Positions 7,914 through 31,366 of a DNA stretch of 32,000 nt are shown piece by piece. The notes beneath the pieces are model-generated. The model searched no databases. It was given only the letters and a program-made list of their open reading frames with translations, and had not been told where the DNA came from. This stretch comes from Thermodesulfobium narugense DSM 14796. Lineage in GTDB: Bacteria; Thermodesulfobiota; Thermodesulfobiia; Thermodesulfobiales; Thermodesulfobiaceae. The DNA lies in contig NC_015499.1 of assembly GCF_000212395.1 (NCBI RefSeq), positions 1,157,421 through 1,189,420 of the forward strand, in the 5' to 3' direction. How positions within the stretch are numbered: position 1 is the first letter of the stretch; each line of letters opens with the position of its first letter. The position numbers and the translations under genes are program-made.

Positions 7914-8080
7914 CTTTTAACCTCCCGAAAAAATAGAATTTTTTATTATTTTTCGTTTACAGATTTAACTACTTACTTAATTATTAAATATTATTTTAAA
8001 TCAAAAATAAATTAAAATGATAGAATAACCTTGTTACTTATGCTTTCATTTTCACGTATTCTTTTGAAGAGGTGATAATA

Positions 8081-10477: not shown

Positions 10478-10511
10478 TCTTAGGAAACAAATTATTGCAT
10501 AAGGAGGAGAA

Positions 10512-11618: not shown

Positions 11619-12355
11619 GCGAAAAAATTATAGAATTAGAAAACATACAGAAGGTTTATAAATCCGGCACTCTTGAAACTGTTGTTTTAAGAGGTATAAG
11701 CTTTGTCATCAACAAGGGTGAATTTGCTTCTATTATGGCACCATCCGGAAGTGGAAAAACAACTCTAATGAACATAATAGGGTTATTGGATAGACCCACA
11801 GGTGGAAAATACTTTCTGGATAACAAGGAGGTCTCAAAACTATCAGATAACGAACTAGCTCATTTAAGAAATCAATATATAGGCTTTATATTCCAACAAT
11901 TCCATCTTTTGCCCGATCTTACGGCAATTGAAAATGTCTTGCTTCCTTCTGTCTATGCAAAAAATCCTCCACCAGACATCAAGGATAGGGCTAAAAAATA
12001 TCTTGAAACAGTAGGTTTAGGAGAAAGATTAAATTTTTATCCATCTGAGCTATCAGGTGGTCAACAACAAAGAGTTGCTATAGCAAGGTCTCTTATCAAT
12101 AGTCCTAAGTTAATTCTTGCCGATGAACCAACAGGTAACCTTGATCCACAATCTGGCATGGAAATATTGTCTGTCTTCCAAAAGCTTAATGAAGAAGGCA
12201 TAACAATATTGATGGTCACCCACTCACCTGAAATTGCACTTTTTACAAAAAAGGTAATTACCCTTAGCTTTGGCAAAGTGCTTAAAGAAGATATTGTGAA
12301 AAATCCCAAATCTGCTCAGGAAGAATTACAAAAGATGTATGTGATTAATACATGA
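11615..12355 (+). CDS. ABC transporter ATP-binding protein, MacB/LolD-type
   Basis: Walker A APSGSGKTT, Q-loop FIFQQFHLL, signature LSGGQQQRVAIARSL, Walker B ILADEPTGNLD, H-loop VTHS. The start overlaps the upstream stop (ATGA). Confidence 0.92.
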   Translation: MSEKIIELENIQKVYKSGTLETVVLRGISFVINKGEFASIMAPSGSGKTTLMNIIGLLDRPTGGKYFLDNKEVSKLSDNELAHLRNQYIGFIFQQFHLLPDLTAIENVLLPSVYAKNPPPDIKDRAKKYLETVGLGERLNFYPSELSGGQQQRVAIARSLINSPKLILADEPTGNLDPQSGMEILSVFQKLNEEGITILMVTHSPEIALFTKKVITLSFGKVLKEDIVKNPKSAQEELQKMYVINT

Positions 12356-13560
12356 TTATAAAAATTCTTTCTTCAGCAATTAAAATAAACTTAAAACAAG
12401 GCTTGAAGGTTTTCATTATGATCTCTGGAATATCTCTTTGTATTCTTGTAATTACTTTAGTAACATCAATAAGCCTAGGTGCAAGGCAGCTTGTAAACGA
12501 AACTCTTCAGCAATTTGGCCCAACTTCTATAATAGTTTTTGCAGGTGGCAGAAGACAACCAGGACAGCCTTTCCAAAGATCTACAACTATGACATTAGAC
12601 GATGTTCGCTCAATAAAGGATCAAATAAGTGGCATTGTAGCAATAGATCCCGAAGCAAACAGCAATATGAATGCAAAATATGGAGCACAAAACATAGATA
12701 CTAATATCTCAGGTGCAACACCATCATTCACTACCGCATGGGATTGGAACGTAGCTGAAGGAAGATTTTTTACCGAAAGAGAAAATGCTTCCATGTCAAG
12801 GGTAGCTGTAATCGGAACTACAGTTGCAAAGCAGTTATTTCAAGGAGAAAATCCACTTGGTAAGCTTATCAGAATTGGCACTACACCATTTACAGTAATT
12901 GGAGTATTAAGTTCACTTGGCACTACACCAAATGGTATGGATAGAGACAATAGAATTGTAATTCCACTTAACACTATGTTAAAAAGAATGCTAAACCAAA
13001 CATATATAACAATGATGAGAATAAAATTTGCACCAGGCACTAATATTAACGTTGTAGCAGGAGAAATTAGTACAATCCTAAGATACAATCACAAACTTAC
13101 TGCATCAGGTCTTCCAGATGACTTTACAATCATAACTCCTGATCAAGTAATGGAATTCTTAAACAGAATAAATTCAACTTTAAATATTTTTCTCGTTGTT
13201 TCAACAATAGTTGCAATAGTTATAGGCTCTGTTGTTGTTTCAAATATAATGCAGGCATCTATTTCTGAAAGAGAAAAAGAGATTGCTCTTAGAAGAGCGT
13301 TTGGGGCTACAAAATCACTTATTGTAACACAAGTTTTCCTTGAAATATTTGTGATCAGCATTATTGGTTCAGTTTTTGGAGCAACCTTAGGGGCTTTACT
13401 GGGAGTAATAATGGAACATTTCACAGGAATTCACGTTTCAATTAGTCCATTGCTGTTTCTTGTCGCATTTAGCGTATCTACAATAATAGCATTAATTGCT
13501 GGAATTCAACCAGCAATAAAAGCTAGTTCATATGATCCAGCAGTGGTCTTACAAAGATGA
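12352..13560 (+). CDS. ABC transporter permease, FtsX/MacB-type (paralogue 1)
   Basis: 402 aa: TM1, a large periplasmic domain, then three C-terminal TM helices with the FtsX motif (E.EKEIALRRAFGATK). ATGA overlap with the ATPase gene. Confidence 0.88.
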   Translation: MIIKILSSAIKINLKQGLKVFIMISGISLCILVITLVTSISLGARQLVNETLQQFGPTSIIVFAGGRRQPGQPFQRSTTMTLDDVRSIKDQISGIVAIDPEANSNMNAKYGAQNIDTNISGATPSFTTAWDWNVAEGRFFTERENASMSRVAVIGTTVAKQLFQGENPLGKLIRIGTTPFTVIGVLSSLGTTPNGMDRDNRIVIPLNTMLKRMLNQTYITMMRIKFAPGTNINVVAGEISTILRYNHKLTASGLPDDFTIITPDQVMEFLNRINSTLNIFLVVSTIVAIVIGSVVVSNIMQASISEREKEIALRRAFGATKSLIVTQVFLEIFVISIIGSVFGATLGALLGVIMEHFTGIHVSISPLLFLVAFSVSTIIALIAGIQPAIKASSYDPAVVLQR

Positions 13561-14777
13561 ACAATTTCTTTATTAACTTTTCACAGGCTTTAAGAAGCAT
13601 CTCTAGAAGAAAAAGAAAGTCTATACTTGCTATTTTAGGTTTTTTAATCGGTATAAGCGCTACAGTCATAATTGCAAGTATAAGTTCTGGAGTAAAAGAG
13701 AAAACAATTGAACAGATAAAGAGTATGGGCAGCAATATGATAGTAGTTACAGCAGGACAGCTCAAAATAATGGGAAATAGACCACATCAGGTCGGAAACG
13801 TAACCACTCTTACTCCCCTGGACTATACAATTCTAAAAAAGGATCTACCAAATGCAAAAATTGCAGCAACACAACAAAAAACATTTACAGTAAAATTCTC
13901 TGATTACAGCGCACAAACTACTATTATAGGTGCAACTCCAAGTCTGTTTAGCGTAAGAGGATATACAGTAAGTATGGGAAGAGAATTTACTTCCAGAGAG
14001 AATAGGCTTCGTGAAAGAGTAGCGATAATTGGTAGAACAGTAATACAAAATCTAAATGCAATACCAGAACAGCTTCTTAATGCAACAATTTTCATAAACA
14101 ATATCCCTTTTAGAGTTATAGGAATACAAGACCCTGTAGGAATTGATATTGGCGGACAAGATGAAGACAATCAGATAATCATCCCACTTGATACAGCTTT
14201 AGATAGGGTTCTTAACGTTACATATATTAATAATATTTACATTAGCGCACCACAAGAATATCTTATGAGTTCATATAAAGACGAAGTAATTAGGATTCTC
14301 AGAAAAAATCACAAACTTACAGACGACCAACAAAACGATTTTACCGTTCAGGACCAAAGCGACATAATTGCAGCTCAAACGAAATCTACTCAGACACTTG
14401 ATAACCTTACTGTGGCACTGGCCATGATAGCAGTCTTCATTGGCGGGTTAGGAATTGCTGCTGTTTTACTTGTCGCAGTAAAAGAACGAACCAAAGAAAT
14501 AGGTGTTAGAAAATCATTTGGTGCTACAAAACAGGATATTCTCACACAATTTTTTATTGAAGCAGCAATACTTTCTGGTTCTGGAACAATTTGTGGTATA
14601 TTAATAGGTTTGCTAATAACTTTTATAATAACTTTGTTTACAAAAATGCCTTTTGTAGTTCCATTTAACATCTTAATTCCCTTAATATTTATAGCATTTT
14701 TAATGGGAGTATTATTTGGAACAATACCAGCAAAAAAAGCTGCAGAAGTAGATCCTATAAGAGCCATTTACTCATAA
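13557..14777 (+). CDS. ABC transporter permease, FtsX/MacB-type (paralogue 2)
   Basis: 406 aa with the same architecture (ERTKEIGVRKSFGATK). ATGA overlap with paralogue 1. Confidence 0.88.
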   Translation: MNNFFINFSQALRSISRRKRKSILAILGFLIGISATVIIASISSGVKEKTIEQIKSMGSNMIVVTAGQLKIMGNRPHQVGNVTTLTPLDYTILKKDLPNAKIAATQQKTFTVKFSDYSAQTTIIGATPSLFSVRGYTVSMGREFTSRENRLRERVAIIGRTVIQNLNAIPEQLLNATIFINNIPFRVIGIQDPVGIDIGGQDEDNQIIIPLDTALDRVLNVTYINNIYISAPQEYLMSSYKDEVIRILRKNHKLTDDQQNDFTVQDQSDIIAAQTKSTQTLDNLTVALAMIAVFIGGLGIAAVLLVAVKERTKEIGVRKSFGATKQDILTQFFIEAAILSGSGTICGILIGLLITFIITLFTKMPFVVPFNILIPLIFIAFLMGVLFGTIPAKKAAEVDPIRAIYS

Positions 14778-14829
14778 AAAACTTCTGAGATTTTTAATAT
14801 CAAAACCCCAGAAGTTTTAATTTTTATTT
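14778..14829 (+). terminator. Intrinsic terminator candidate after the efflux operon, between convergent genes
   Basis: aaaacttctg (14778..14787) pairs with cagaagtttt (14809..14818). An inner tttt/aaaa extension is possible. On the + strand aaTTTTTaTTTc follows. On the minus strand the downstream U-tract is poor. Confidence 0.55.
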
Positions 14830-14838
14830 CAAAATTAT

Positions 14839-15492
14839 TTATTGCTTCTTTAGCTCTTCATACCACAAAGCATTATGCTTCATTACGTACTCTTCATCAA
14901 TCATTCCATTCCCAAGCATTGTACCAAGTTCTTTTCTAGAACTAGGATTAATTGCTCCGAGATAAAAGTGGACAATAATTGCTGACCCCAAAAAAGTGCC
15001 GCAAAAAACGTGGACAATAATTGCTACTTGTATTAAATATCCTGGAAAAGATGCATAAAAGAACATCATCGAACCTGTAAGTCCAAGACATAAGGAAAAT
15101 ATAATTATTATCCAACCTAAAAGTTTTTGGCCTGCATTAATCTTGCCCTGTGGGGGTATTTCTTTTGCCTTTATAATTGGAGAAAGATATCCCCCAAAAA
15201 CCTTCATCCATTTTTTGTCTTCAGGAGTGAAAGTACTAATTAATTTCATAAAACCTGAAAATAATTTGAAGTTAAATATTGCATACAAAAGAGGCAGCAA
15301 AAGATAGAAAAAACCAAGATATTTATGAACAAAAGCAGCATTTCTGAGACTTCCAAAAGGTAGACTCATAACGTTCATTGGAGGATAAAACAATGACAAC
15401 CCAGTCCACAACATGGTTATAAAGGTTATAAGATGTAACCAATGAAATATTCGGGTAGCTTTTTTATGTTTTTCAATCATCCTCTTTGCCAT
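14839..15492 (-). CDS. fdnI: Formate dehydrogenase gamma subunit (cytochrome b, FdnI-type), copy 1
   Basis: 217 aa with four hydrophobic helices and conserved His (HWLH, HKYLG, HVFCG, HFYL). The ATG overlaps the fdnH TAA by 1 nt (TAATG). It is the last gene of the Cys-type operon. Confidence 0.85.
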   Translation of the reverse strand: MAKRMIEKHKKATRIFHWLHLITFITMLWTGLSLFYPPMNVMSLPFGSLRNAAFVHKYLGFFYLLLPLLYAIFNFKLFSGFMKLISTFTPEDKKWMKVFGGYLSPIIKAKEIPPQGKINAGQKLLGWIIIIFSLCLGLTGSMMFFYASFPGYLIQVAIIVHVFCGTFLGSAIIVHFYLGAINPSSRKELGTMLGNGMIDEEYVMKHNALWYEELKKQ

Positions 15493-16271
15493 TACTGATC
15501 GCCTCCTTTATTTCCTGCCTGTATAAGCCTGTGGAGAAACACAAGTCCAGCAGCACCGCCTAACATGACCAACCCCAGTGGGTGCATAATATTTTTCCAA
15601 ATGAGAGTATTTGCTGGAAAAACTGGATTTTTCGGCAATCCATATTTTTCGGGCTCATATTTAAGTATAGATAATACTCCTAGCCCTCCTAGTATGTTTT
15701 CTCCATAAAGATTTGCTTCTGTAAACCCTTCTTTTTTCAAGACCTCTACTCTTTCTTTACCTTGTTTTACAAGATCATCTCTTTTTCCAAAATAAAGTGC
15801 ACCACCTAAGCATGCCTTCACACATGCAGGAGTAGAAGTCTCGTCAGACTTACTGCCATCAATAACTCTTGAATAACACATATCGCATTTATTTATTACC
15901 TTACCAATTTGAGGAATTCCAAAGGGACATGCACTGTGACAATAACCACATGCTATACATTTGTTCACGTCAAAGGCAACTATCCCATTCTCTGCCTGAA
16001 AAAGAGCTCCACTTGGGCAGGCTTTTACACAGGCAGGCTCTCCACAATGAAAACATTGATACTTTAAAAAGTTAAAGTTCTGTTTTTCTGTGAAATCATC
16101 ATAAAAATTTATGATCATACGCGTATGCGGATTCAGGCTTGGTGGATTGGTATAAAAACCTGTAAAAGTAGTTGGATCGGTTTTCTGATCGTTCCATTGT
16201 TTACAAACAGACTGGCACCCTCTACAACCCATGCATTTAGAAGAATCAAACATATAGGCCACTCTTTCCAT
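15492..16271 (-). CDS. fdnH: Formate dehydrogenase iron-sulfur beta subunit (FdnH-type), copy 1
   Basis: 259 aa with ferredoxin-type Cys clusters (CMGCRGCQSVC, CFHCGEPACVKACP, CIACGYCHSACP, CDMCY) and a C-terminal TM anchor (LGLVMLGGAAGLVFL). The ATG lies 1 nt after the fdnG stop, and the SD GAGGAGGG sits inside the fdnG 3' end. Confidence 0.9.
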   Translation of the reverse strand: MERVAYMFDSSKCMGCRGCQSVCKQWNDQKTDPTTFTGFYTNPPSLNPHTRMIINFYDDFTEKQNFNFLKYQCFHCGEPACVKACPSGALFQAENGIVAFDVNKCIACGYCHSACPFGIPQIGKVINKCDMCYSRVIDGSKSDETSTPACVKACLGGALYFGKRDDLVKQGKERVEVLKKEGFTEANLYGENILGGLGVLSILKYEPEKYGLPKNPVFPANTLIWKNIMHPLGLVMLGGAAGLVFLHRLIQAGNKGGDQ

Positions 16272-16272
16272 C

Positions 16273-19269
16273 TTAGGCCCTCCTCAAGTTAATCATCAAA
16301 GCTTTTGATTCCTGAATCTCAGAAGTTGGATCTCCAACATTTTCAGTCATAAGATTAGCTGAAAAAATTTCATTTTTACCGCTATCAGGATCGATTCCTA
16401 CAAACCCCCAATGCCACGGTATACCTACTATATGAAACTTTTTGCCGTCAATTATCACAGGCTGCAACCTAGACGTTACACAAGCTTGAGCCTTTACTTT
16501 GCCCCTAATAGATTCAAGCTCTACTTTGTCTCCGTTTTTAATTCCAAGTTCTTTTGCTAATTCAGGATCTATTTCAGCAAATACTTGTGGCATTTCTTCA
16601 ACCAAAATTGGAATTTTTCTAGTTATAGATCCACTTTGATAGTGTTCAGTCAATCTATATGTAGTACATATATATGGATATTTCGGATCGTTTAAAGGAG
16701 CGTATTTATCAATATCTGATTTGAAAATTATAGCTACAGGATTATTTTGTACAGGACTTAAAAGATTTTTCACAGGAGCTTCAATAGGCTCATAGTGTTC
16801 TGGGAAAGGACCATCCTTAACCAGACCTGATGGCACAAAGAGTCTTCCTCCACCTTCTGGTATCATTATGAAAGGAGCATCACCACCAGGAGCATCCGGC
16901 GCCTTTGTTGGAAGAAAATCTGGCACATCTGGACCAGTCCATTTTTTTTGAGCAGCATCCCATTTTATAACAGTTAGTTTTGGATTCCAAGGTTTGCCTT
17001 CAAGATCACAGCTAGCTCTATTGTAAAGAATTCTTCTATTTACAGGCCAAGACCATGCCCACTCAGAATTAAGCCCTATTCCCTCTTTTTCAGGCTTTCT
17101 TCTTGCAGCCAGATTTCCAGCAGGAGGATACACACCAGAATATATCCAACAGCCACATGCCGTAGAACCGTCGTCTTTGAGAGCTGCAAAACTAACTAAC
17201 TGCTTTTTTGTACTTACCTCAAACCCATTAATCTCTTTTAAAACAGAATCGATATCATATTTATCTCCACCATAACCCCATGTTAAGTTAAGCATGCCTT
17301 CAGGTGAAGGAGTAGAAGGATCATCTTTAAACTGTTTTTTTAAACCAACCACTAGCTTATCCAATATAACCATATCTTCTTTTGATTCATACATAGGTTC
17401 TATTGCCTTATACCTCATCTGAAGCCATCTGGAAGTATTAGTAGCTGAGCCATCCTTCTCAACAAAGGATGAAACTGGCAACATAAAAACTTCAGTCTTT
17501 ATGCCTTTTGGATTTGCGCCCGGCCTTTTCCAGAAATTTGCAGTCTCAGTTTCAAAAAGATCTGCAACCATAAGCCACTCAAGATTTTCCAAAGCTTTGC
17601 CAGTTTTATCTCCAAGCGGACTTGATACCAGAGGATTTTGTCCCCAGATCATCATTCCCTTTATCCCCTCATTTTTATACAAATTATCCCAAATATACAT
17701 CCAGGAAGCAGGTTTGGACCACTTTGGAAGCCAATCATATCCAAAATCGTTTTCTTTTGTTGCCGCATCCCCAAACCATGCTTTAAGCATGCTGACGACA
17801 AATTTTGGTGCATTAGACCAATAACAATCAGGAAGTGTAATCTTTTTTAGATATTCTTTAAAATTTGGATGAAGTTTTTCATTGGGAGCTGCTAGATATC
17901 CGGGTAAAGAATTATACAAAAGAGCCATATCCGTTGAGCCTTGAACGTTAGTCTCACCCCTCATAGCATTTACACCACCACCAGCCATACCTATGTTACC
18001 TAATAAAAGTTGAATAATACAAAAAGCTCTAATGTTTTGTGTACCAATTGTGTGCTGAGTTAAACCCATTGCATACATCAATGTGCCAGATTTATCAGGC
18101 GCACCAGTGGAGCTATACAACTTAGCTATTTCAAGAAATGTTTCTTTGTTTATGCCTGTAACCTTCTCCACAACTTCAGGAGTATATCTAGAATAATGTA
18201 CTTTCATTTTTTGAAAAACACAGTTTGGATCTTTAAGGGTCATATCCCTTAGTGGCTTATTATCAGGTCCAGTTTGGTAGGCCCAGCTTGCATAATTATA
18301 GGTTTTACTTTTTATATCCCATCCTGAAAAGTATCCATCCTTAAAATCATATTCAGGTTTTAAAAGATATGAAGCATTTGTGTAGTGCTTTACATAAGTT
18401 TCTTGATATTTATTATTCTGAAGAATATAGTTTATCAAACCCCCGAAAAAGGCAATATCAGTTCCAGGCCTTATTTGCGCATAGATATTTGAAAGTGCAG
18501 AAGTTCTAGTAAATCTTGGATCTACAGAAATGACTTTCCCACCACGTTCTTTACACATATTAATATATCGCGCGCTGCCTGGATGATTTTCTGCAGGATT
18601 TCCACCACAAATCATTATTACATCAGAATTTTTCACATCTATTAGCGAATTTGTCATTGCCCCTCTCCCAAAACTAGGGCCTAATGCTGTAACAGTAGAA
18701 GAGTGGCAGATTCTTGCCTGATGTTCAAGATATACAATGCCTAATGCTCTAGCAAATTTAGCAAACAGATAACATTCATCAGTGCCGTGAGCTGCTCCTC
18801 CAAGCATCGCAAGCCCCTCAGTTCTATTTACTGTTACTCCGTTTGACGTCTTTACAAACGAACTATCTCTGGTTTTTTTGATTCTTTTGACAAGCTCAGA
18901 AATAGTCCAATCCCAGCTTTTCTCTTCCCACTTGTCAGAACCAGGAGCCCTATACATTGGTTTTTTCAACCTCAATGGGCTATCGTAAATACTAAAACAG
19001 GTAGAACCCTTTGCACAAAGCCCGCCTTCGCTATTTGGATTATCTGGATCACCTTCTATGTTTACCACTTTACCACCTTTGGAATATACCAACAGTCCAC
19101 ACCCAACCCCACAATAAATGCACACAGAATTAGTAACCTTGGTATCCTTTAGCTTAAAAGGTATACTTGCGTGCGCTAATTTTGGTACAGCTACATTACC
19201 ATCTAATACCATCATTGAAGCACTAACAAAGGAAAACTTAAGAAAATCCCTTCGATTAAATTTCCCCAT
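16273..19269 (-). CDS. fdnG: Formate dehydrogenase catalytic alpha subunit (Mo/W-bis-PGD, FdnG-type), cysteine isoform
   Basis: 998 aa. It has a twin-arginine signal MGKFNRRDFLKF and an N-terminal Fe-S motif CIYCGVGCG...CAKG. The active-site block is EHQARICHSSTV, with Cys188 encoded by TGC at 18706..18708. RBS: GGGAGtgaaatgaATG. Confidence 0.93.
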   Translation of the reverse strand: MGKFNRRDFLKFSFVSASMMVLDGNVAVPKLAHASIPFKLKDTKVTNSVCIYCGVGCGLLVYSKGGKVVNIEGDPDNPNSEGGLCAKGSTCFSIYDSPLRLKKPMYRAPGSDKWEEKSWDWTISELVKRIKKTRDSSFVKTSNGVTVNRTEGLAMLGGAAHGTDECYLFAKFARALGIVYLEHQARICHSSTVTALGPSFGRGAMTNSLIDVKNSDVIMICGGNPAENHPGSARYINMCKERGGKVISVDPRFTRTSALSNIYAQIRPGTDIAFFGGLINYILQNNKYQETYVKHYTNASYLLKPEYDFKDGYFSGWDIKSKTYNYASWAYQTGPDNKPLRDMTLKDPNCVFQKMKVHYSRYTPEVVEKVTGINKETFLEIAKLYSSTGAPDKSGTLMYAMGLTQHTIGTQNIRAFCIIQLLLGNIGMAGGGVNAMRGETNVQGSTDMALLYNSLPGYLAAPNEKLHPNFKEYLKKITLPDCYWSNAPKFVVSMLKAWFGDAATKENDFGYDWLPKWSKPASWMYIWDNLYKNEGIKGMMIWGQNPLVSSPLGDKTGKALENLEWLMVADLFETETANFWKRPGANPKGIKTEVFMLPVSSFVEKDGSATNTSRWLQMRYKAIEPMYESKEDMVILDKLVVGLKKQFKDDPSTPSPEGMLNLTWGYGGDKYDIDSVLKEINGFEVSTKKQLVSFAALKDDGSTACGCWIYSGVYPPAGNLAARRKPEKEGIGLNSEWAWSWPVNRRILYNRASCDLEGKPWNPKLTVIKWDAAQKKWTGPDVPDFLPTKAPDAPGGDAPFIMIPEGGGRLFVPSGLVKDGPFPEHYEPIEAPVKNLLSPVQNNPVAIIFKSDIDKYAPLNDPKYPYICTTYRLTEHYQSGSITRKIPILVEEMPQVFAEIDPELAKELGIKNGDKVELESIRGKVKAQACVTSRLQPVIIDGKKFHIVGIPWHWGFVGIDPDSGKNEIFSANLMTENVGDPTSEIQESKALMINLRRA

Positions 19270-19281
19270 TCATTTCACTCC

Positions 19282-19323
19282 CTTGATAGTGAATATATTT
19301 TTTAATTTCAAAACACTATCAAG
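19282..19323. promoter_or_regulatory. Perfect 10-bp inverted repeat (candidate operator or leader hairpin) directly upstream of the fdnG-Cys SD
   Basis: cttgatagtg (19282..19291) and cactatcaag (19314..19323) are exact reverse complements separated by 22 nt. On the minus strand this reads CTTGATAGTG-n22-CACTATCAAG-GGAG(SD). The distal arm contains a TTGATA -35-like hexamer, and a TATATT -10-like hexamer lies between the arms (19-nt spacer). Confidence 0.35.
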
Positions 19324-19519
19324 TTTATAATAACATATTAAATTGGTAAAATAATCATTATCAAATTTAAATATTTTAAAAAAATGCTTATAAATGCTTA
19401 TATAAATAAAATATTTTTATACCATCGTTATGAAAATCAGGAGTTTTTTACAAATTGAACATTTATAAGTAATTTTACAATAAAATATTATAAAAAAGAC
19501 TTATTATTAATAATAAATA

Positions 19520-20305
19520 TTATTTGCTAATCCAAGAAGCGGCGTAAAAAATCTTAAACCATGAAGGCCTAAAATCCATATCTTTCATCGATATGTCTAA
19601 ATTCCAGCTGGATAGATAAAGCAAGGGATAAAGGTGTGTATCCTCATTTTTCTCCCTTAAGTCAAGAACCTTTAAATACATCCCACAAGCTTCACAAACC
19701 TCTACTCTCCATCCAGGAAGCTCATCTGCGCTATAATATCTCATAGACTTTTGTTCTTCATCAGCACATAGAGGGCAAACTGTCCTCCTGTGTCCCCATC
19801 TCGTATAACAGGTAGAACACACCAAACTTTTTTTCCCGTCTCCCTCAATAAAGCCTATGCCAGCACTTGAACCACAAACAGGACAAACTGGCTCATACCA
19901 TTTTGCAAGGTTACATCTTTTCGAAAGTATTTCACCAATATAAGAATAGATAGAAGAATAAACTAGTAGCTTTACAAAACCAATTTTATCCTCAGATAAA
20001 TTCAATTTATCAAATATTGTCAAACTTTTTTCATCAAAACGTACTTTTTCCTTAATTCCAAAATCATCCTTTACAATTTTCGCCAAAAAATTTAAATCCT
20101 TTTTGTACATTTTTAATTTAAATAATTCTAAATAAGACCTTCCTTCGTCAAATACTTTTTTAAATTCTTCTGTATCAATGCTTTCTTCAGGTATAAAGTC
20201 AATTATTTTGGTCAACAAACTTTCCCTACAGGAATAGTATTTATCCCAAAATTCGACCACAGACTCTAATATTGGATACTTTTCAACAAATTTTGTTAAA
20301 TTCAT
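19520..20305 (-). CDS. fdhE: Formate dehydrogenase accessory protein FdhE
   Basis: 261 aa with four CxxC motifs in the C-terminal half (CPVCGS, CSTCYTRW, CPLCADE, CEACGMYLK), as in FdhE. RBS: GGAGGttatggATG. It lies between the two FDH operons. Confidence 0.8.
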   Translation of the reverse strand: MNLTKFVEKYPILESVVEFWDKYYSCRESLLTKIIDFIPEESIDTEEFKKVFDEGRSYLELFKLKMYKKDLNFLAKIVKDDFGIKEKVRFDEKSLTIFDKLNLSEDKIGFVKLLVYSSIYSYIGEILSKRCNLAKWYEPVCPVCGSSAGIGFIEGDGKKSLVCSTCYTRWGHRRTVCPLCADEEQKSMRYYSADELPGWRVEVCEACGMYLKVLDLREKNEDTHLYPLLYLSSWNLDISMKDMDFRPSWFKIFYAASWISK

Positions 20306-20398
20306 CCATAACCTCCAGTAATTTGACTAACTTAGACAAATTTTTAAAAACAAAATTATCAGTTCATAATTATTCTGCTATTATTAAACGTTAACAAG

Positions 20399-20436
20399 AT
20401 TTGAGTGCAAAGTCAAATTAGACTTTGCACTCAAAT
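20399..20436. terminator. Strong stem-loop between fdnI copy 2 and fdhE (terminator, attenuator or RNA-stability element)
   Basis: atttgagtgcaaagtc (20399..20414) and gactttgcactcaaat (20421..20436) form a perfect 16-bp stem with a 6-nt loop. It starts 55 nt after the fdnI-2 stop. On the coding (minus) strand the trailing U-tract is weak (aucuuguu). Confidence 0.5.
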
Positions 20437-20490
20437 TAAATTTTATTTACTTCTATTTAACACTTAATCTACTTAATTTTTAAAAGTTTA

Positions 20491-21141
20491 CTATTTTTTC
20501 AACTCCTCATACCACAGAGCATTGTGATGCTTCACATAATCTTCATCTATCATGCCGCTTCCAAGCATTGTCCCCAGTTCTTTGTTCGAAGTAGGATTGA
20601 TCGCAGCAAGGTAAAAATGAACTATTACTGCAGCCCCCAAGAATGTGCCACAAAATACGTGAATCATTATAGCTATTCGAACAAGTAGTCCAGGGAAAGA
20701 CGCATAATAGAACATTATCAATCCTGTTAAACCAAGCAAAATTGAAAACACTATTATTATCCACCCTAAAAGCTTTTGTCCTGCATTGTATTTCCCCTGA
20801 GGTGGGACTTCATCAGCCTTTATTATAGGATGCAAATAACCGCCCAATATAGAGAGCCATTTCTTATCCTCAGGCGTAAACGTACTAATTGTTTTAAAGA
20901 AATTGGAAAACAGTTTAAAGTTCCAAGAAACATAAATTATTGGAAGAATTACATAAAACCATCCAAGATATTTGTGAATAAAGGCTGCGTTTCTAAGACT
21001 TCCAAATGTCATGCCTAGCACATTAGTCCATGGATAAAACAAGGAAAATCCTGTCCATAACATGATTATAAAAGTTATAAGGTGCAGCCAGTGAAAAATC
21101 CTTGTATTCTTTTTGTGCTTCTCAATCTTATTTGCAGCCAC
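20491..21141 (-). CDS. fdnI: Formate dehydrogenase gamma subunit (cytochrome b, FdnI-type), copy 2
   Basis: 216 aa, collinear with copy 1 (for example KIEKHKKNTRIFHWLHLITFI). The GTG start overlaps the fdnH-2 TAG by 1 nt (TAGTG). Confidence 0.85.
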   Translation of the reverse strand: MAANKIEKHKKNTRIFHWLHLITFIIMLWTGFSLFYPWTNVLGMTFGSLRNAAFIHKYLGWFYVILPIIYVSWNFKLFSNFFKTISTFTPEDKKWLSILGGYLHPIIKADEVPPQGKYNAGQKLLGWIIIVFSILLGLTGLIMFYYASFPGLLVRIAIMIHVFCGTFLGAAVIVHFYLAAINPTSNKELGTMLGSGMIDEDYVKHHNALWYEELKK

Positions 21142-21920
21142 TACTGTTCACCTCCCTTTTTCCCCAGGTTGAGCGCCCTATGAAGCACAACAAGGCCAGC
21201 TGCGCCTCCTAGCATTATTACTCCCAAAGGATGCAATATCCCTTTCCACAAGCCAATATCATTAGGAAACACAGGTTCTTTTGGAAGACCATATTTTTCA
21301 GGAGAATATTTTAGTATAGCAAGAACTCCGAGCCCTCCAAGTATATTTTCTCCATAAAGATTGGCTTCCGTATAGCCTTTCTTTTTCAGAACCTCAACTC
21401 TTTTCTTACCTTGCTCAACCAAATCACTTCTCTTTCCAAAAGTAAGTGCACCTGCAGGGCAGCTTTTTACACATGCTGGAATAGAAGTCTTATCAGACTC
21501 AGAGCCTTCCATTACTCTTGAATAACACATGTCACATTTGTTTATTACCTTGCCAATTTGAGGAATTCCAAAGGGACATGCACTGTGACAATAACCACAA
21601 GCAATGCACTTATTTTCGTCAAATGCTACTATTCCGTTTTCCGCTTGGAAAAGAGCTCCGCTTGGACATACCTTTACACATGCAGGATCTCCGCAATGAA
21701 AACACTGATATTTCAAAAAGTTAAAATTTGGATCTGGAGTAAAGTTGTCATAAAATTTTATAATCATCCTCGTATCAGGATTCAGGCTGGGCGGATTGGT
21801 ATATACCCCCTTAAACGTCGTAGGAACAGTCTCTTGATCGTTCCATTCTTTACAAATACTTTGACATCCTCTACAACCCATGCACTTAGAAGAATCATAC
21901 ATATAGGCCACTCTTTCCAT
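21141..21920 (-). CDS. fdnH: Formate dehydrogenase iron-sulfur beta subunit (FdnH-type), copy 2
   Basis: 259 aa with the same Cys-cluster layout and C-terminal TM anchor as copy 1. The ATG lies 1 nt after the fdnG-2 stop. Confidence 0.9.
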   Translation of the reverse strand: MERVAYMYDSSKCMGCRGCQSICKEWNDQETVPTTFKGVYTNPPSLNPDTRMIIKFYDNFTPDPNFNFLKYQCFHCGDPACVKVCPSGALFQAENGIVAFDENKCIACGYCHSACPFGIPQIGKVINKCDMCYSRVMEGSESDKTSIPACVKSCPAGALTFGKRSDLVEQGKKRVEVLKKKGYTEANLYGENILGGLGVLAILKYSPEKYGLPKEPVFPNDIGLWKGILHPLGVIMLGGAAGLVVLHRALNLGKKGGEQ

Positions 21921-21921
21921 T

Positions 21922-24915
21922 TTAGGCCCTCCTCAAGTTAATCATCAAAGCTTTTGATTCTGGAATGAGGCTAGTCGGATCGCCAACATTCTCTGTTACA
22001 AGATTCGCAGCATAAGATTCGTCTTTACCACTATCTGGGTCTATACCAACAAAGCCCCAGTTCCATGGGATTCCAACTACATGATATTTTTTGCCGTTGA
22101 TTACCATAGGCTGAACTCTAGTAGTGACACATGCTTTTGCCTTAACTTTTCCCCTTATAGATTCCAATTCTACATCGTCGCCATCTTTAATTCCCAGCTC
22201 TTTAGCAAGCTCTGGATCAATCTCAGCAAATACTTGTGGCATTTCTTCTACAGTTACAGGTATTTTTCTTGTTATTGCACCAGATTGATAATGTTCTGCA
22301 ACTCTATAAGTAGTACAAATGTATGGATATTTTGGATCGTGAAGTGGAGCGTATTTGTCTATATTTGATTTGAATATCAAAGCAATTGGATTGTTTTGAA
22401 CAGGGTTTACTTTATTTTCAACAGGGGATTCAATTGGCTCATAGTGTTCAGGGAATGGCCCATCTTTTACCAGTCCGCCTGGCACAAATAGTCTGCCCTG
22501 CCCGCCAGTTAGCATGATAAAAGGCAAAGTACCTCCTGGATCTGTGGGAGCTTTTGTGGGCAAGAAATCAGGTACATCTCTTCCAACCCATTTTTTCTGT
22601 GACGAATCCCACTTTATTACATATTTTTCTGGATTCCATGGGTTGCCTTCTAGATCACATCCTGCTCTATTATATAAAATTCTTCTGTTCACAGGCCATG
22701 CCCAACCCCATTCAGGATTAAGTCCCAACCCTGTTTTTTCTGGCTTTCTTCTTTTCGCAAGGTTCCCAGCAGGCGGATACATTCCAGAGTATATCCAACA
22801 ACCACTCGTTGTAGAACCATCGTCTTTTAGCGCTGCAAAGCCCGGAACTTGTTTTTTAGTTGCTACTTCAAACCCATTAATTTCTTTAAATACCTCATCA
22901 GCGCTGTGGTTATGACCACCATAGTTCCACGTTAAATTCAGTATTGCTTCTGGATTTGGCGTTGACGGATCTGCTTTTACTAACTCTTTTATCTTATATA
23001 TCAGATCGTGCAATATTACAGAATCTTCCCTACACTCATATAGAGGCTCAACTGCCTTGTATCTCATCTGAAGCCATCTGGAGGTATTTGTAGCTGAACC
23101 GTCTTTCTCTACCATTGAAGCTACAGGCAATAAAAATACTTCCGTTTTAATACTCTTTGGATCTGCATGTGGTCTTTTCCAGAAATTAGCAGTCTCAGTC
23201 TCAAACAAATCTGCAACCATTAACCATTCTAGATTTTCAAGAGCCTTACCCGTTTTTTCAGCAAATGGGCTGGATACCAATGGGTTTTGACCCCAAATCA
23301 TCATTCCCTTAATTCCTTCTTTTTTGTATAAATTGTCCCATATGTGCATCCATGAAGCAGGCTTAGACCACTTTGGCAGCCAATTATACCCGAAATCATT
23401 TTCTTTTGTAGCTGCATCACCAAACCATGCCTTAAGCATGCTTATAATAAACTTCGGAGCATTAACCCAATAACTATCAGGAGCAATAGATTTTTTAATA
23501 AATTCCTGAAGATTTGGATGCAATTTGTCGTTTGGTGATGGCAAGTAACCTGGAAGGGTATGGAACAAAAGGCCCATATCAGTAGAACCCTGAACATTTG
23601 CCTCACCCCTCATAGCGTTTACCCCGCCACCAGCCATACCCATATTTCCTAACAGAAGCTGAATTATACAAAAGGCTCTGATGTTCTGCGTTCCCACAGT
23701 GTGTTGAGTAAGACCCATAGCATAAATTAAGCATCCTGACTTATCTGGTGCTCCTGTGGAAGAATAAACTTCAGCAATCTTTAGAAAAGTTTCTTTTTTC
23801 ATTCCAGTAACATTCTCGACTACTTCTGGCGTATATCTTGAGTAGTGCTTTGCCAGTCTTTGAAACACACAATTTGGATCTTGGAGTGTCATGTCTTTCA
23901 AGACTTTTTTATCTGGTCCTGTTTGAAATCCCCAGGTTGCATAATTGTACATCTTTTTTGCCTCATCCCATCCAGAAAAATGGCCATCTTTGAAGTCAAA
24001 TTCAGGATTCAACAACCATGAGGCATTAGTATAATTCTTAAGATAAATTTCCTGATATTTTTTGTTTTGAATTATATAGTTGATTAAACCACCAAAAAAT
24101 ACGATATCTGTTCCTGGTCTTATTGGCGAATATATATCAGAAAGCGAAGAAGTTCTCGTAAACCTTGGATCTACAGAAATAACTATCCCACCTGAATCCT
24201 TGCACATATTAATATATCTTGCTATAGCAGGGTGATTTTCAGCAGGATTTCCCCCACAAATCATAATTACATCTGAATTTCTTACATCAGTTAAAGGATT
24301 TGTCATTGCACCTCTTCCAAAACTTGGACCCAAACTGGTCACTGTGGAAGAGTGTCATATACGTGCCTGATGTTCAAGATAAACTATCCCAAGCGATCTT
24401 GCAAATTTAGACAATAGATAACATTCATCAGTATCATGGGATGCCCCTCCAAGCTGAACAAGACCTTCGGTTCTGTTTACTGGAACTCCCCCCACTTCCT
24501 TAACAAAGGTTTCATTCCTTGTTTTCAGGATTCTTTTTGCTACCTCATTAATAGTCCAGTCCCAGCTCTTTTCTTCCCATTTATCAGAACCAGGTGCTCT
24601 ATACATAGGTTTCTTCAATCTCAGAGGATTGGAATAAACGTAGAAAGACGTTGCACCTTTTGCACAAAGTCCGCCTTCGTTGTTAGGATTGTCAGGATCG
24701 CCTTCAATGTTTACTACTTTACCATCTTTTGCATAAACAAGAAGTCCACATCCTACACCACAGTAAATACATACTGAAGGACTTACTTTAGTGTCTTTTA
24801 ACTTGAAGGGTTTTACAGAAGCCTGTGCAGGCACAGCAATATTGCCGTCCATTACCATTGCTGTAGCGCCAGCAAACGTAAGCTTTAAGAAGTCCCTCCT
24901 TCTAAGCTTCCCCAT
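21922..24915 (-). CDS. fdnG: Formate dehydrogenase catalytic alpha subunit (FdnG-type), selenocysteine isoform; in-frame UGA at 24357..24355 read as Sec
   Basis: Track ORFs 24355..24915 and 21922..24342 are in the same frame. The junction reads CAT CAG GCA CGT ATA TGA CAC TCT TCC ACA GTG ACC, that is HQARI-U-HSSTVT. This is collinear with HQARICHSSTVT in the paralogue. It also has a Tat signal (MGKLRRRDFLKL), an Fe-S motif (CIYCGVGCG) and a SECIS-like hairpin immediately 3' of the UGA. Confidence 0.88.
24309..24354 (-). promoter_or_regulatory. SECIS-like mRNA stem-loop immediately downstream of the UGA codon
   Basis: mRNA: UGA CACUCUUCCA CA G(U)GACC AGUUUG GGUCC AAGUUU UGGAAGAG(G)UG. The lower stem is 10 bp with one bulged G. 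The apical helix is 4-5 bp with a possible bulged U. The 6-nt loop is centred about 19-24 nt after the UGA. Confidence 0.65.
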
Positions 24916-25126
24916 TCATTTCACTCCCTTTTTTGAGACATATATAAAAATAAATTAAAGAAAATAAGAATAAATAGCATTTTTATAAAAATTTACATAA
25001 CTTACTTTATATTTTACAACCCACTTTGATAAAAAAAACAACTATTTTTAATAAAACTTACTTATATTACACTAAATTATATTTATTTGTATTTTCCCAA
25101 TTTAGATATATTAAACACTTTTAAAA

Positions 25127-26497
25127 CTACACTAAAGCGCTAAAAATTATCTCAGAAAGCGTTGGGTGAGCATAAATTATGTTCTTTAGCTCAGTTACAT
25201 TTGCTTTACTTTGCATTGCAATAGCCATAATATGAACTAACTCGTATGCCATAGGACCTATAAACATGGCACCAAGTATAATCTCATCTTCAGAAGTAAG
25301 GACCTTAAAAAAGCCTGAATTTTGACCCATAATAAGTGCTTTTCCATTGCCTTTAAAAAATGCCCTGTATGTTTTATAAGAAATTCCTTTTGATTTCAGG
25401 TCTTCTTCTGTTAATCCAATACAACCTACACCAGGATCTGTAAATACCACCCTTGGCAAAAGTTCATAATTAACACACTCAGTTTCGCCAAGTATTTTTT
25501 TTGCAACAAATATTCCTTCTCTAGTAGCTACATTGGCTAGCATTGGAGTTTTTATAATATCTCCTACTGCATATACGTTACTGTTATTTATGCTAAAATC
25601 ATTCTCTGTAATTATGTAATCCCTTTCGGTTTTTGCATTAATAGCCTCCAAATTCAGATCCTTTGTATTAGGTCCTCTTCCTACAGAAACTAATATAATA
25701 TCCACAAGAGCCTCTTTAACTAAATTACTTTTTCTATTTTTAAAATTAACCAATATCTTTTCATCTTTGTTTTGAACATTTACAATCTCTGAATCAGTAT
25801 TTACAGATATATTTCTCTTTTTAAATTCTCTCAGAAGAGTGCGAGAAACCTCATCATCTTCTACTCCCATTATCTTAGGTAAAAATTCCACAATTGTTAC
25901 GTTTGATCCAAAATAATTTAGTAACGACGCAAACTCACAACCTACATATCCTCCTCCAACAACAAGAATGTCTTTTGGCAAGTTTTTCAACTTTAAAAGA
26001 CCGCTACTTGAAATAATTTTATTTTCATCGATATTCAAAGTTGAAAGACTTTTTGGATATGAGCCTGTTGCTAAAACAATGCTATCAGCAAAATAATCAA
26101 CACCGTCAACCCTTACTGCATTATTAGTTACCAGCATCCCCTTACCAAAGATCATATTAACTTTTGACCTTTTCAGTCTTGAAATTATTCCCTGTCTCAA
26201 TTGAGATTTCTGATCCTCTAAAAGCTTCACTGCATTAGAATACTCTATTCTGAAGTCAACATTGAAAACATCTTTGTATTCTTTCATTCTTTGTACCAAA
26301 TGAGCGCTTTCAACTAGCGACTTTACAGGAATACATCCTTCATTTAAACATGTACCGCCAATATTTTCTTCAGATTTATCTACCAAACATACACTTTTTC
26401 CTCTTTCTCCTAAATAAAGCGCACATTCATAGCCTGCTGGTCCAGCACCAAGAATAATCGCATCAAATTTATTTTCCAACCTCAACTTCTCCCACAA
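25127..26497 (-). CDS. lpdA: Dihydrolipoyl dehydrogenase (E3 / glycine cleavage L-protein)
   Basis: FAD motif ILGAGPAGY, redox disulfide GGTCLNEGCIPVK, NAD motif VVGGGYVGCEF, C-terminal HAHPTLSE. The track start is TTG 26497, which overlaps lipA by 16 nt. An alternative TTG at 26479 lies 2 nt after the lipA stop and gives M-ENKFDAIILGAG. Confidence 0.9.
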   Translation of the reverse strand: MWEKLRLENKFDAIILGAGPAGYECALYLGERGKSVCLVDKSEENIGGTCLNEGCIPVKSLVESAHLVQRMKEYKDVFNVDFRIEYSNAVKLLEDQKSQLRQGIISRLKRSKVNMIFGKGMLVTNNAVRVDGVDYFADSIVLATGSYPKSLSTLNIDENKIISSSGLLKLKNLPKDILVVGGGYVGCEFASLLNYFGSNVTIVEFLPKIMGVEDDEVSRTLLREFKKRNISVNTDSEIVNVQNKDEKILVNFKNRKSNLVKEALVDIILVSVGRGPNTKDLNLEAINAKTERDYIITENDFSINNSNVYAVGDIIKTPMLANVATREGIFVAKKILGETECVNYELLPRVVFTDPGVGCIGLTEEDLKSKGISYKTYRAFFKGNGKALIMGQNSGFFKVLTSEDEIILGAMFIGPMAYELVHIMAIAMQSKANVTELKNIIYAHPTLSEIIFSALV

Positions 26498-27351
26498 GAT
26501 AAATATTTTTGTGCGTTATATGAGCTTCTTACATATGGAGCACTTTCAACATGTTTAAAACCAAAGTTTCGTGCAATTTCTCCTATTTCTTCAAATTTGT
26601 CTGGATGAACGTATTCATAAACCTCGACATTCTTCAAACTTGGTCTTAAATATTGCCCTATACTAATAAAATCACAGTTAATTTTAATAAGCCTTTCAAA
26701 AACTTCCTTTAATTCGTCCATCGTTTCTCCCAAGCCAAGCATTATCCCAGTTTTTGTAAAGACATTTTGAGATAATTTTTTAACACTTTCTAAAACATAT
26801 AGGGATCTCTCAAATGAAGCCCCTTTCCTAATAGCATAAAGTCTTGGAACAGTTTCCAGATTGTGACCAAAAATCTCAGGATTTAACCCAATTACTGTTT
26901 TAATTGAATCAGTATCACCCTTGAAATCAGGCACTAAAACTTCGATAGTAACATTTGGATTAAGATTTCTAATAGCTTTTATAGTGTTTGCAAAGTGAAG
27001 TGCTCCGCCATCAAAAATGTCATCCCTAGTAGGGGATGTGATTACTACATGAGAAAGATTCAGTCTTTCTACAGCTTGAGCTACTCTTTCTGGCTCATAC
27101 GGATCTAAAGGTTTTAGTAAATTTTTATCCTTAGCTTTCTTTACATTACAAAATTCACAAGATCTCGTACATACATCACCCATTATTAGAAAAGTAGCAT
27201 GTCTATTACTAAAACACTCTGATATATTAGGACACCTTGCTTCTTCGCAAACAGTGTTTAACTCCAAATCTTTTAGTAAAACTCTTGTATAGTTCTCCGT
27301 CTTTTGACAAACTTTCTTATGAAGCCACGCAGGTTTCTTTTTCAATACCAT
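26482..27351 (-). CDS. lipA: Lipoyl synthase (radical SAM)
   Basis: N-terminus KKPAWLHKK, auxiliary cluster CEEARCPNISEC, radical-SAM motif CTRSCEFC. Overlaps the upstream gene by 35 nt. Confidence 0.92.
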   Translation of the reverse strand: MVLKKKPAWLHKKVCQKTENYTRVLLKDLELNTVCEEARCPNISECFSNRHATFLIMGDVCTRSCEFCNVKKAKDKNLLKPLDPYEPERVAQAVERLNLSHVVITSPTRDDIFDGGALHFANTIKAIRNLNPNVTIEVLVPDFKGDTDSIKTVIGLNPEIFGHNLETVPRLYAIRKGASFERSLYVLESVKKLSQNVFTKTGIMLGLGETMDELKEVFERLIKINCDFISIGQYLRPSLKNVEVYEYVHPDKFEEIGEIARNFGFKHVESAPYVRSSYNAQKYLSCGRS

Positions 27352-28105
27352 CCCTATTCCAACTTTCAGATAAATATTTTTTCTCTCTCAAAAAAGAAGC
27401 AAGCCTAATTTCCTCTTTTGTTGGTTCACAAAAATCTAAATCAACTTTCATTTCCTTACTAAAAAACGTTGCAAGACCTTTGAGTGCGCTCTCATAAGAT
27501 ATATCTTGAACCCAATCTTGAAGCGAATTTCCATGCTCATAAGGCTTAGAAAGATTTCTTCTACTCTTTACTGGGATAGAACCATGTTGGAATATTACAT
27601 CGTGAGAGCGCTTTTGTGCATTCCCCCCAACCTTTTGGCCATCTATTAAAATATCATACTTTTCCTTACCCTGATAACACAATATTGGGTTTTTCTCCGA
27701 ATCAGCATTTTCACACTCACATGCCCATTTGGCATTTAGATTTAAAGAATTATAGAAGTCCAACACAAAAGAAGTCAATTTTTTGTAAGAGTCAACTACA
27801 GACAAATTGCCCAAATGTTCTTGAGAACAAACAATAGAGTATGAAATTTCTTCATGATGGTACAAAGCATTCCCCCCCGTCAACCTTCTAACAAAAAAAC
27901 CTTCCTCGTGAGACAAAAAAACCTTGTTAATATCAGATATTTTTTGAAATCTCCCCACTGATAAAACTGAAGGATGCCAAAAATAAAATCTTATTACAGG
28001 TTCTCTTTTCTTTAAGAAGGTTAAATATAAAGCTTCGTCAATAGCCATATTATAATCACCACTTAATGGAGACGAAACTATAAATCTAAACCTCTTACAA
28101 GACAA
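27317..28105 (-). CDS. Lipoate-protein ligase / octanoyltransferase family protein (LplA/LipM-type catalytic domain only)
   Basis: 262 aa with the BPL/LplA/LipB blocks RRLTGGNALYHHEEISYSIV and KVGGNAQKR. It has no LplA C-terminal accessory domain. The TTG start follows AAGGAAGGGActtaga. Confidence 0.75.
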   Translation of the reverse strand: MSCKRFRFIVSSPLSGDYNMAIDEALYLTFLKKREPVIRFYFWHPSVLSVGRFQKISDINKVFLSHEEGFFVRRLTGGNALYHHEEISYSIVCSQEHLGNLSVVDSYKKLTSFVLDFYNSLNLNAKWACECENADSEKNPILCYQGKEKYDILIDGQKVGGNAQKRSHDVIFQHGSIPVKSRRNLSKPYEHGNSLQDWVQDISYESALKGLATFFSKEMKVDLDFCEPTKEEIRLASFLREKKYLSESWNRDGIEKETCVAS

Positions 28106-28203
28106 TCTAAGTCCCTTCCTTCTTAAATATTTAAGATATATAAATCATACTTTTTTATTAAATTATTCAATATTATACAGCTTATTCCAAAATTCATAAT
28201 ATT

Positions 28204-30956: not shown

Positions 30957-30958
30957 TT

Positions 30959-31333: not shown

Positions 31334-31366
31334 AGATATTCCTCCTTTTAAAGTAATATTTTTATT

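Follow-up and report, generated by a model that had tools for sequence, protein, structure and literature searches.

Tandem selenocysteine- and cysteine-type formate dehydrogenase operons around a single fdhE gene in Thermodesulfobium: a candidate selenium backup

In a 32-kb stretch of the Thermodesulfobium narugense DSM 14796 genome (contig NC_015499.1, positions 1,157,421 to 1,189,420; hereafter the window, meaning the whole stretch analysed), two complete fdnGHI operons for a three-subunit formate dehydrogenase (FDH) lie head to tail around a single accessory gene, fdhE. Thermodesulfobium is a hot-spring sulfate reducer. The catalytic subunit FdnG is of the selenocysteine (Sec) type in the upstream operon and of the cysteine (Cys) type in the downstream one. 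The explanation that we prefer, with a probability of about 0.6, is that the operon was duplicated, that one copy changed from Sec to Cys, and that the Cys enzyme serves as a selenium-independent backup. Judging from the genes, the most likely role of the Cys enzyme would be to back up a more active Sec enzyme. We found no paper on this locus in the literature.

Gene layout, selenocysteine codon and protein families

All coordinates are window positions, the window serving as the reference, and the locus lies on the minus strand. An earlier interpretation of this DNA, the sequence-only reading, had described a Sec set and a Cys set, each complete with alpha, beta and gamma subunits, and a single fdhE between them. 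The open reading frame map, the translations and the sequence bore this out base for base. In the 5′ to 3′ direction of the minus strand, the order is fdnG(Sec)-fdnH-fdnI, a hairpin, fdhE, a gap, fdnG(Cys)-fdnH-fdnI and a canonical terminator:

21922..24915, minus strand: fdnG-Sec, catalytic alpha subunit, 997 aa, with the twin-arginine (Tat) signal RRDFLK, a [4Fe-4S] Cys motif and Sec187-His188
24355..24357, minus strand: in-frame TGA, Sec codon 187, read as 'HQARI*HSS' where the paralog has 'HQARICHSS'; aligned with Cys188
24302..24360, minus strand: putative selenocysteine insertion sequence (SECIS) element, lower stem CUCUUCCA/UGGAAGAG, apical hairpin GACC-AGUUUG-GGUC
21141..21920, minus strand: fdnH copy 1, predicted beta subunit with four [4Fe-4S] clusters (Fer4_11, 16 Cys)
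20491..21141, minus strand: fdnI copy 1, predicted cytochrome b gamma subunit (PF01292)
20401..20434, minus strand: inter-operon RNA hairpin with a 14-bp stem, from folding and conservation
19520..20305, minus strand: fdhE, predicted single accessory (maturation) gene (FdhE_central, four CxxC motifs)
19270..19519, minus strand: AT-rich gap of 250 nt, GC 0.16, the Cys control region
16273..19269, minus strand: fdnG-Cys, catalytic alpha subunit, 998 aa, Cys188 codon at 18706-18708
15492..16271, minus strand: fdnH copy 2 (16 Cys)
14839..15492, minus strand: fdnI copy 2, predicted cytochrome b gamma subunit
14773..14817, minus strand: canonical intrinsic terminator after the Cys operon, AACUUCUG...CAGAAGUU followed by U6, -19 to -23 kcal/mol

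The paralogous G, H and I proteins are 79, 81 and 75% identical, respectively, and their genes 74, 77 and 70%.

The TGA in fdnG is, as far as sequence can tell, a selenocysteine codon. The Rfam model SECIS_3 (RF01989) matched at the TGA with 38.5 bits and E = 6.6e-6, and matches at the orthologous place were obtained in three further Thermodesulfobium loci (L082, L089 and L090). Over the four genomes, the scores ranged from 33.6 to 38.5 bits and the E values from 6.6e-6 to 1e-3, with every score under the gathering score of 63. None of the Cys copies scanned gave a SECIS_3 match. The apical SECIS hairpin is kept in all three Sec copies that were folded, and it is replaced in the Cys copies. 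A remnant of the element is visible in the Cys fdnG at 18650-18708 (minus strand), where the lower stem CUCUUCUA.../...GGGAGAG is retained. The TGA is conserved in L082, L083, L089 and L090, and coding constraint persists across it, with dN/dS (the ratio of nonsynonymous to synonymous substitution rates) of ~0.03 for the whole gene in four ortholog comparisons. At this site, TGA is found in about 70 and Cys in 6 of 79 more distant outgroup homologues. Sec-type hydrogenases have been reported in Thermodesulfobium isolate genomes, and one Thermodesulfobium metagenome-assembled genome (MAG) has four predicted selenoprotein genes (PMC13582414, PMC12013277).

The layout was compared in two complete genomes, L089 (T. 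acidiphilum CP020921.1) and L090 (T. sp. 4217-1), and in the partial contigs L002, L082, L083, L084 and L088. Both complete genomes carry the full tandem arrangement, with TGA and TGT/TGC read directly, and each of the five partial contigs carries part of it. As to whether the Cys copy occurs only where the Sec copy does, a point raised by the sequence-only reading, the two codons were found in the same genome in the window, L082, L083, L089 and L090; L002 and L088, being partial contigs, gave Cys-only reads. The Cys FdnG protein cluster includes T. acidiphilum AWB10461.1, the T. sp. 4217-1 protein and T. narugense MAG fragments, and the Sec cluster holds mostly truncated calls of 794 or 806 aa. 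In database entries P0002 and P0135-P0148 the Sec fdnG often appears as a truncated 794- or 806-aa product, and GenBank also stores the T. acidiphilum Sec FdnG as an 806-aa fragment; at least one of the assemblies GCA_003057965.1 and GCA_039822205.1 calls the gene at its full length of 997 aa. The metagenome and MAG contigs (L002, L082, L083, L084, L088) break inside or beside the paralogous fdnG genes. Because of the truncated Sec entries and the contig breaks at the paralogs, the pair is easily overlooked by annotation pipelines and automated surveys.

In protein family searches, the catalytic subunits scored well above the model cut-off. TIGR01553, the equivalog model of the FDH-N alpha subunit (cut-off 814.2), scored 1201.7 bits with FdnG-Cys and 964.3 bits with the fragment of FdnG-Sec that follows the TGA. 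Both FdnG translations contain the RRDFLK twin-arginine signal, the CIYCGVGC...C [4Fe-4S] motif and the (U/C)H active-site pair, and FdnG matched Pfam Molybdop_Fe4S4. The best PDB matches of FdnG-Cys were 1H0H, D. vulgaris FdhAB and 1KQF (E < 1e-260 for 1H0H and 1KQF); the nearest solved structures are thus the Desulfovibrio W/Sec FDHs and E. coli Fdn-N.

The other proteins scored lower. FdnH matched Pfam Fer4_11, with a weak Form-deh_trans match in copy 1 only, and reached 216-222 bits with TIGR01582 (copy 1: 222), below the cut-off of 334.7. FdnI passed PF01292, and its TIGR01583 scores were 114.9 (copy 1) and 102.6 against a cut-off of 115.85. For FdhE, the scores were 27.7 with FdhE_central (cut-off 27), 24 with FdhE_C (cut-off 27) and 47 with TIGR01562 (cut-off 187.65), and four CxxC motifs were read from the sequence. 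All genomes compared retain the 16 cluster Cys residues of FdnH and the candidate heme ligands of FdnI (His17/20, 56, 161 and 175) in the two copies alike. Because FdnH, FdnI and FdhE fit the expected Pfam families but miss the NCBIfam equivalog cut-offs, they are, by these scores, a divergent branch of the family. Both operons probably encode respiratory, Tat-exported enzymes of the FDH-N/O type, an assignment that is part of the explanation preferred here.

Duplication history and selective constraint

Orthologs in Thermodesulfobium are 91-94% identical, versus 75-81% for the paralogs within each genome. In a neighbour-joining tree, the Thermodesulfobium Sec and Cys clades are sisters, and the nearest outgroup is a Negativicutes-like clade (Thermosinus, Propionispira) with 58-68% identity in the protein search. 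A contig scan with FdnG-Cys had shown a single close relative and nothing further above 53% identity, but the 8-mer pre-filter had caused this gap, as the protein search found the 58-68% relatives. The usual gene order in relatives is G-H-(I)-fdhE, and no second GHI set was found at any outgroup locus examined, including three from the nearest clade.

Since the Sec and Cys clades are sisters and the outgroups are mostly of Sec type with a single GHI-fdhE, we conclude that the operon was duplicated in tandem long ago, in the genus Thermodesulfobium only, and that one copy then changed from Sec to Cys. In the ancestor of the genus, a Sec-type fdnGHI-fdhE operon acquired another GHI set behind fdhE. 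The upstream copy kept the ancestral Sec (UGA187 and SECIS), and the downstream copy exchanged Sec for Cys and lost the apical SECIS hairpin.

Both copies are under strong purifying selection. The ortholog dN/dS was 0.024-0.035 for fdnG-Sec, 0.037-0.040 for fdnG-Cys, 0.022 for fdnH copy 2 and 0.031 for fdnI copy 2, that is 0.02-0.04 over both operons, with dS > 1. The fdhE orthologs are 80% identical, with dN/dS of 0.06-0.08. These values support the view that both operons are functional. Recent gene conversion between the paralogs was rejected: the sliding identity was 0.61-0.86, no tracts were seen and dS was saturated.

An origin of the Cys operon by horizontal acquisition, or its status as a decaying copy, is close to refuted. 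Cys-type relatives do occur in the nearest outgroup clade (Propionispira, P0003, P0005), but in the tree the sister of the Thermodesulfobium Cys clade is the Sec clade of the same genus, not these outgroup Cys forms, and the identity to the paralog is 79% versus 58-68% to the outgroups. A decaying copy is hard to reconcile with dN/dS of 0.02-0.04, intact frames in seven genomes and the retention of all cofactor ligands.

The gene neighbourhood in the nearest outgroup clade (L085:15362-22991, L092:15383-23006) differs in content. There, a single fdnGHI-fdhE is followed by fdhD, a gene with an AFOR_N domain and two moeA genes; the same clusters also carry a tungstate/molybdate-type ATP-binding cassette (ABC) transporter. 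None of these genes adjoins the Thermodesulfobium operons.

Fixed type-specific differences between the Sec and Cys sets number 124 in FdnG, 23 in FdnH and 27 in FdnI; therefore, the subunits diverged as two distinct sets. Such differences, spread along the proteins, would also be expected if the isoenzymes were specialised for molybdenum (Mo) versus tungsten (W), pH, temperature, formate level, or formate oxidation versus CO2 reduction, with Sec/Cys as a side effect. Two further observations agree with a specialisation of this kind: the nearest solved structures are W-containing Desulfovibrio FDHs, and moeA and genes for a tungstate/molybdate-type transporter are found in the related single-copy clusters of Propionispira (L085) and L092. 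In Desulfovibrio, the FDH isoenzymes are responsive to Mo and W. We nevertheless regard this alternative as unlikely. The sole change in a catalytic ligand is exactly the one that makes the enzyme independent of selenium, the Cys copy is the only one to have lost SECIS, and the Thermodesulfobium locus contains no Mo or W genes. Moreover, the two Sec/Cys FDH pairs known from bacteria have each been interpreted as a selenium backup (PMC3892789, PMC3315566).

Control regions and transcript structure

The sequence-only reading had placed the onset of similarity between the copies just 15 nt upstream of each fdnG ATG, and exactly 15 identical nucleotides (AAGGGAGTGAAATGA) were found there. It had also assigned a separate control region to each isoenzyme, with which our data agree, as the upstream regions are non-homologous and each is conserved across species above the level of fourfold-degenerate sites. 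The statement that these regions are unrelated holds for the alignment as a whole (local alignment score 34 versus 34.2 +/- 5.1 for shuffles), but a common 15-bp palindrome had been overlooked. The elements of the two regions are as follows:

24916..25126, minus strand: Sec operon control region, between the lpdA stop and the fdnG-Sec ATG
24916-24930, minus strand: Shine-Dalgarno (SD) block common to both copies (Sec side), the 15 nt preceding each ATG
25051..25065, minus strand: candidate palindromic motif ATAAGTAAGTTTTAT (ATAAR-N4-TTTTAT), 150 nt before the fdnG-Sec ATG
19490..19504, minus strand: candidate motif ATAAR-N4-TTTTAT, distal Cys copy, at a conserved position
19406..19420, minus strand: candidate motif, proximal Cys copy, fully palindromic (ATAAAAATATTTTAT), at a conserved position
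19327..19335, minus strand: candidate extended -10 element TGnTATTAT of a putative promoter, TG and TATTAT the same in 7/7 genomes
19282..19323, minus strand: perfect inverted repeat CTTGATAGTG-N22-CACTATCAAG, 42 nt, in the Cys leader, abutting the SD

Conservation was measured in gapped alignments, as ungapped values are distorted by 1-nt indels. In the Sec region, the mean pairwise identity among five genomes was 0.90 (-1..-45), then 0.75, 0.67 and 0.76 (-136..-180) in successive segments, and 0.26 beyond. The Cys region, compared in seven genomes, gave 0.95 (-1..-45, with 40 of 45 columns invariant) and 0.82 (-46..-90). Fourfold-degenerate sites in adjacent genes were 0.57-0.64 identical (0.57 in the fdnG next to the Sec region), so the promoter-proximal 90 nt of both regions are better conserved than these sites. 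A 23-nt block, AAGGGAGTGAAATGAATGGGGAA, covering the SD, the spacer and the first codons (24908-24930 and 19262-19284, minus strand), is identical in both paralogs and almost invariant across genomes despite saturated synonymous sites. It holds an out-of-frame ATG 4 nt before the true start.

The 15-bp motif lies at -150..-160 of the Sec ATG in all five genomes having the region, and the distal and proximal Cys copies are 82-84 bp apart in 7/7 genomes. Searched for exactly, ATAAR-N4-TTTTAT gave just two occurrences in the window, and each fdnG is preceded by one of them. The two control regions together contain three motif sites, versus 0.07 in shuffles, and the other intergenic regions of the window contain none. 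The pattern was defined post hoc, after the regions had been seen, and for this reason we treat the motif as a lead and not as a proven site. It fits the loose T-N11-A form of LysR-type boxes. The shared palindrome suggests that one regulator may act on both operons, besides their separate control.

The inverted repeat in the Cys leader showed one change in seven genomes (A to G, G-U compatible), with an almost invariant spacer. It could be a DNA operator or a hairpin in the 5′ untranslated region; no compensatory change was found in the seven genomes, so that the data fit either role. Neither leader gave an Rfam match to a riboswitch or other known RNA, even at E <= 5.

These features also bear on a simpler view, in which there is no switch: both operons would be co-expressed, either constitutively or under a common signal such as formate, and the duplication would serve dosage or robustness only. 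The same palindromic motif in both control regions, the identical translation-initiation block and the similar purifying selection on both copies are in line with this. On the other side, beyond the motif the two upstream regions show no relation, the number of sites is one versus two, and the 42-nt palindrome is present in the Cys leader only. Loss of Sec would be unnecessary in a duplicate kept purely for dosage, and the Sec operon deprived of selenium would yield no full-length product. Co-expression of this kind thus appears improbable, somewhat more so than specialisation of the isoenzymes.

The sequence-only reading had also noted a stem-loop between the first fdnI and fdhE. It is present and conserved, in six genomes, with a 14-bp stem of about -23 kcal/mol, but it is not a canonical terminator, as it lacks a U tract. 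Two compensatory pair changes were found in L083, and other genomes show G-U wobbles, for which pairing is possible on the sense strand only. The distance from the hairpin to the SD of fdhE is 17-19 nt in L082 and L083. The hairpin was also considered as a member of a repeat family, which was rejected, as it is single-copy in the window. The terminator after the Cys operon, in turn, is of the textbook type and is conserved in L002, L088, L089 and L090. The covariation, the sense-strand wobbles and the missing U tract, set against that terminator, led us to regard the hairpin as probably an intercistronic RNA element for stability or processing and not a terminator, again within the estimate given for the preferred explanation. 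Read in this way, it would allow transcription from the Sec promoter to reach fdhE. The interval from fdhE to fdnG-Cys yielded no terminator-like hairpin.

Two Thermodesulfobium genomes carry a hicB/hicA toxin-antitoxin pair in the interval from the first fdnI to fdhE (L002:3790-4610, L090:8370-8820). On either side of the insert stands a copy of one ~75-nt segment, in direct orientation, with the inter-operon hairpin inside it. The region around the hairpin may attract insertions as a hot spot, or it may belong to the hicB/hicA cassette itself.

Immediately upstream of the FDH locus lies a glycine-cleavage and lipoylation cluster (gcvT, H, P1, P2, lplA, lipA and lpdA; 25127-31924, minus strand). 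The linkage of gcvP-lipA-lplA-lpdA to fdnGHI-fdhE recurs in the Negativicute Propionispira arboris (L085/L086 1-6604) and is thus a cross-phylum linkage. A panE-like gene and a TolC/HlyD/MacB-type efflux cluster (8072-14777, plus strand) are convergent with the Cys operon, and all Thermodesulfobium loci preserve the synteny of the efflux cluster. A tRNA-Val(GAC) gene is located at 3904-3979 (minus strand). These genes are unremarkable.

A possible selenium backup and its relation to known systems

The sequence comparisons establish the gene layout, the duplication history and the selective constraint, whereas the selenium response, the promoters and the regulator are inferred. Selenium-dependent switching between the two operons is plausible from the layout described above, and two layers of control can be envisaged. 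In the first, the Sec operon would sense selenium intrinsically: without Sec-tRNA, translation would halt at codon 187 and, by analogy with Treponema primitia, the uncoupled transcription would then drop off downstream. In the second, the Cys operon, with its own putative promoter (TGnTATTAT) and a constrained leader including the 42-nt palindromic element, would be controlled separately. With one copy in the Sec region and two in the Cys region, the ATAAR-N4-TTTTAT palindrome would be the site at which one regulator acts on both. Both GHI sets would need the single FdhE, whose gene would be within reach of transcription from the Sec promoter; between fdhE and the Cys operon, transcription would meet no terminator.

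Several points speak against a selenium backup. The SECIS match is under the Rfam gathering score, and selA, selB, selC and selD were not seen among the window genes and are located outside the window. Sec/Cys need not be the selected difference, as the 124 fixed FdnG substitutions would fit specialisation for metal, pH, temperature or reaction direction. The palindrome, if real, argues for co-regulation as much as for reciprocal control. A sigma-70 consensus scan was not enriched over shuffles, nor was the terminator scan, and neither was used to place promoters; the promoters and transcription starts given here are consensus guesses for a locus known from its sequence alone.

We know of no established regulator for bacterial selenium sensing. 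The palindrome and the 42-nt element of the Cys leader might be binding sites of a selenium-responsive bacterial regulator, for example of the LysR_Se/HrsM type, which at present is a doubtful proposal. If it were true, the locus would be the first respiratory (FDH-N-type) Sec/Cys switch with defined operators and would offer a route to a bacterial selenium sensor. The compact locus, its natural variants across the genus and the delimited candidate operators would be useful for finding how bacteria sense selenium. Methanogens, a termite-gut spirochete and an acetogen are the organisms in which a Sec/Cys backup has been known so far; if selenium controls the present locus, this strategy would extend to a membrane-bound, energy-conserving FDH in a deep-branching thermoacidophilic sulfate reducer.

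With respect to the enzyme family, a close known system is E. coli FdnGHI/FdoGHI-fdhE, which shares the family (TIGR01553, 1KQF), the GHI-fdhE order and a single FdhE for two isoenzymes. The E. coli enzymes, in contrast, are both Sec enzymes encoded at separate loci, and they are regulated by nitrate and anaerobiosis rather than selenium. The emphasis that the sequence-only reading had put on a pair sharing one fdhE is correct for this locus, but the feature is not distinctive: one FdhE serves both Fdn and Fdo in E. coli, and G-H-(I)-fdhE is common in relatives.

That reading had cited no bacterial precedent for a Sec/Cys FDH pair, but such pairs have been published for T. primitia (PMC3892789) and Acetobacterium woodii (PMC3315566), which are the nearest analogues of the present locus; the T. 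primitia pair has been studied by experiment. In T. primitia, selenium limitation raises the transcript of fdhF(Cys) and truncates that of fdhF(Sec) around the UGA/SECIS through lost translation-transcription coupling (Matson et al. 2010, PMC3892789). The likeness is that of a bacterial FDH paralog pair with one Sec and one Cys member. The T. primitia enzymes, however, are cytoplasmic, of the FdhF/FDH-H type and from an acetogen, whereas those of Thermodesulfobium are three-subunit, Tat-exported, quinone-linked enzymes of the FDH-N/O type from a sulfate reducer. Thermodesulfobium also differs in duplicating whole operons around one fdhE, and its pair is known here from genes alone.

The hydrogen-dependent CO2 reductase (HDCR) cluster of A. 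woodii has the order fdhF1(Cys)-hycB1-fdhF2(Sec)-hycB2-fdhD, with copies 79% and 82% identical (PMC3315566). As in the present locus, where the corresponding values are 79% and 81%, catalytic and electron-transfer genes are duplicated in tandem as one Sec and one Cys set with one shared accessory gene. It differs in being a soluble hydrogen-dependent CO2 reductase module with fdhD instead of fdhE, no cytochrome b subunit and the Cys copy first. The survey by Zhang et al. 2006 (PMC1794560) described Cys FdhA derived from a Sec ancestor with a partial SECIS stem, which resembles the CUCUUC.../...GAGAG stem surviving here. In that survey, Cys FdhA was rare in Sec users, whereas here both forms stand side by side genus-wide.

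In Methanococcus, Cys isoforms (Fru/Frc, Vhu/Vhc, Fdh) replace Sec isoforms under selenium shortage (PMC11097638), and the LysR-type HrsM/LysR_Se is the selenium regulator (PMC5322559). A dedicated regulator acting on intergenic control regions would be a likeness to the locus studied here, whose palindrome fits the loose T-N11-A LysR box. Methanococcus differs in being archaeal and in the enzymes concerned; the window contains no HrsM/LysR_Se gene, and no search aimed at one was made. Compared with all these systems, what is new in Thermodesulfobium is the enzyme class (three-subunit, periplasmic and quinone-linked), the duplication of a whole operon around fdhE, its genus-wide conservation and the candidate cis-elements.

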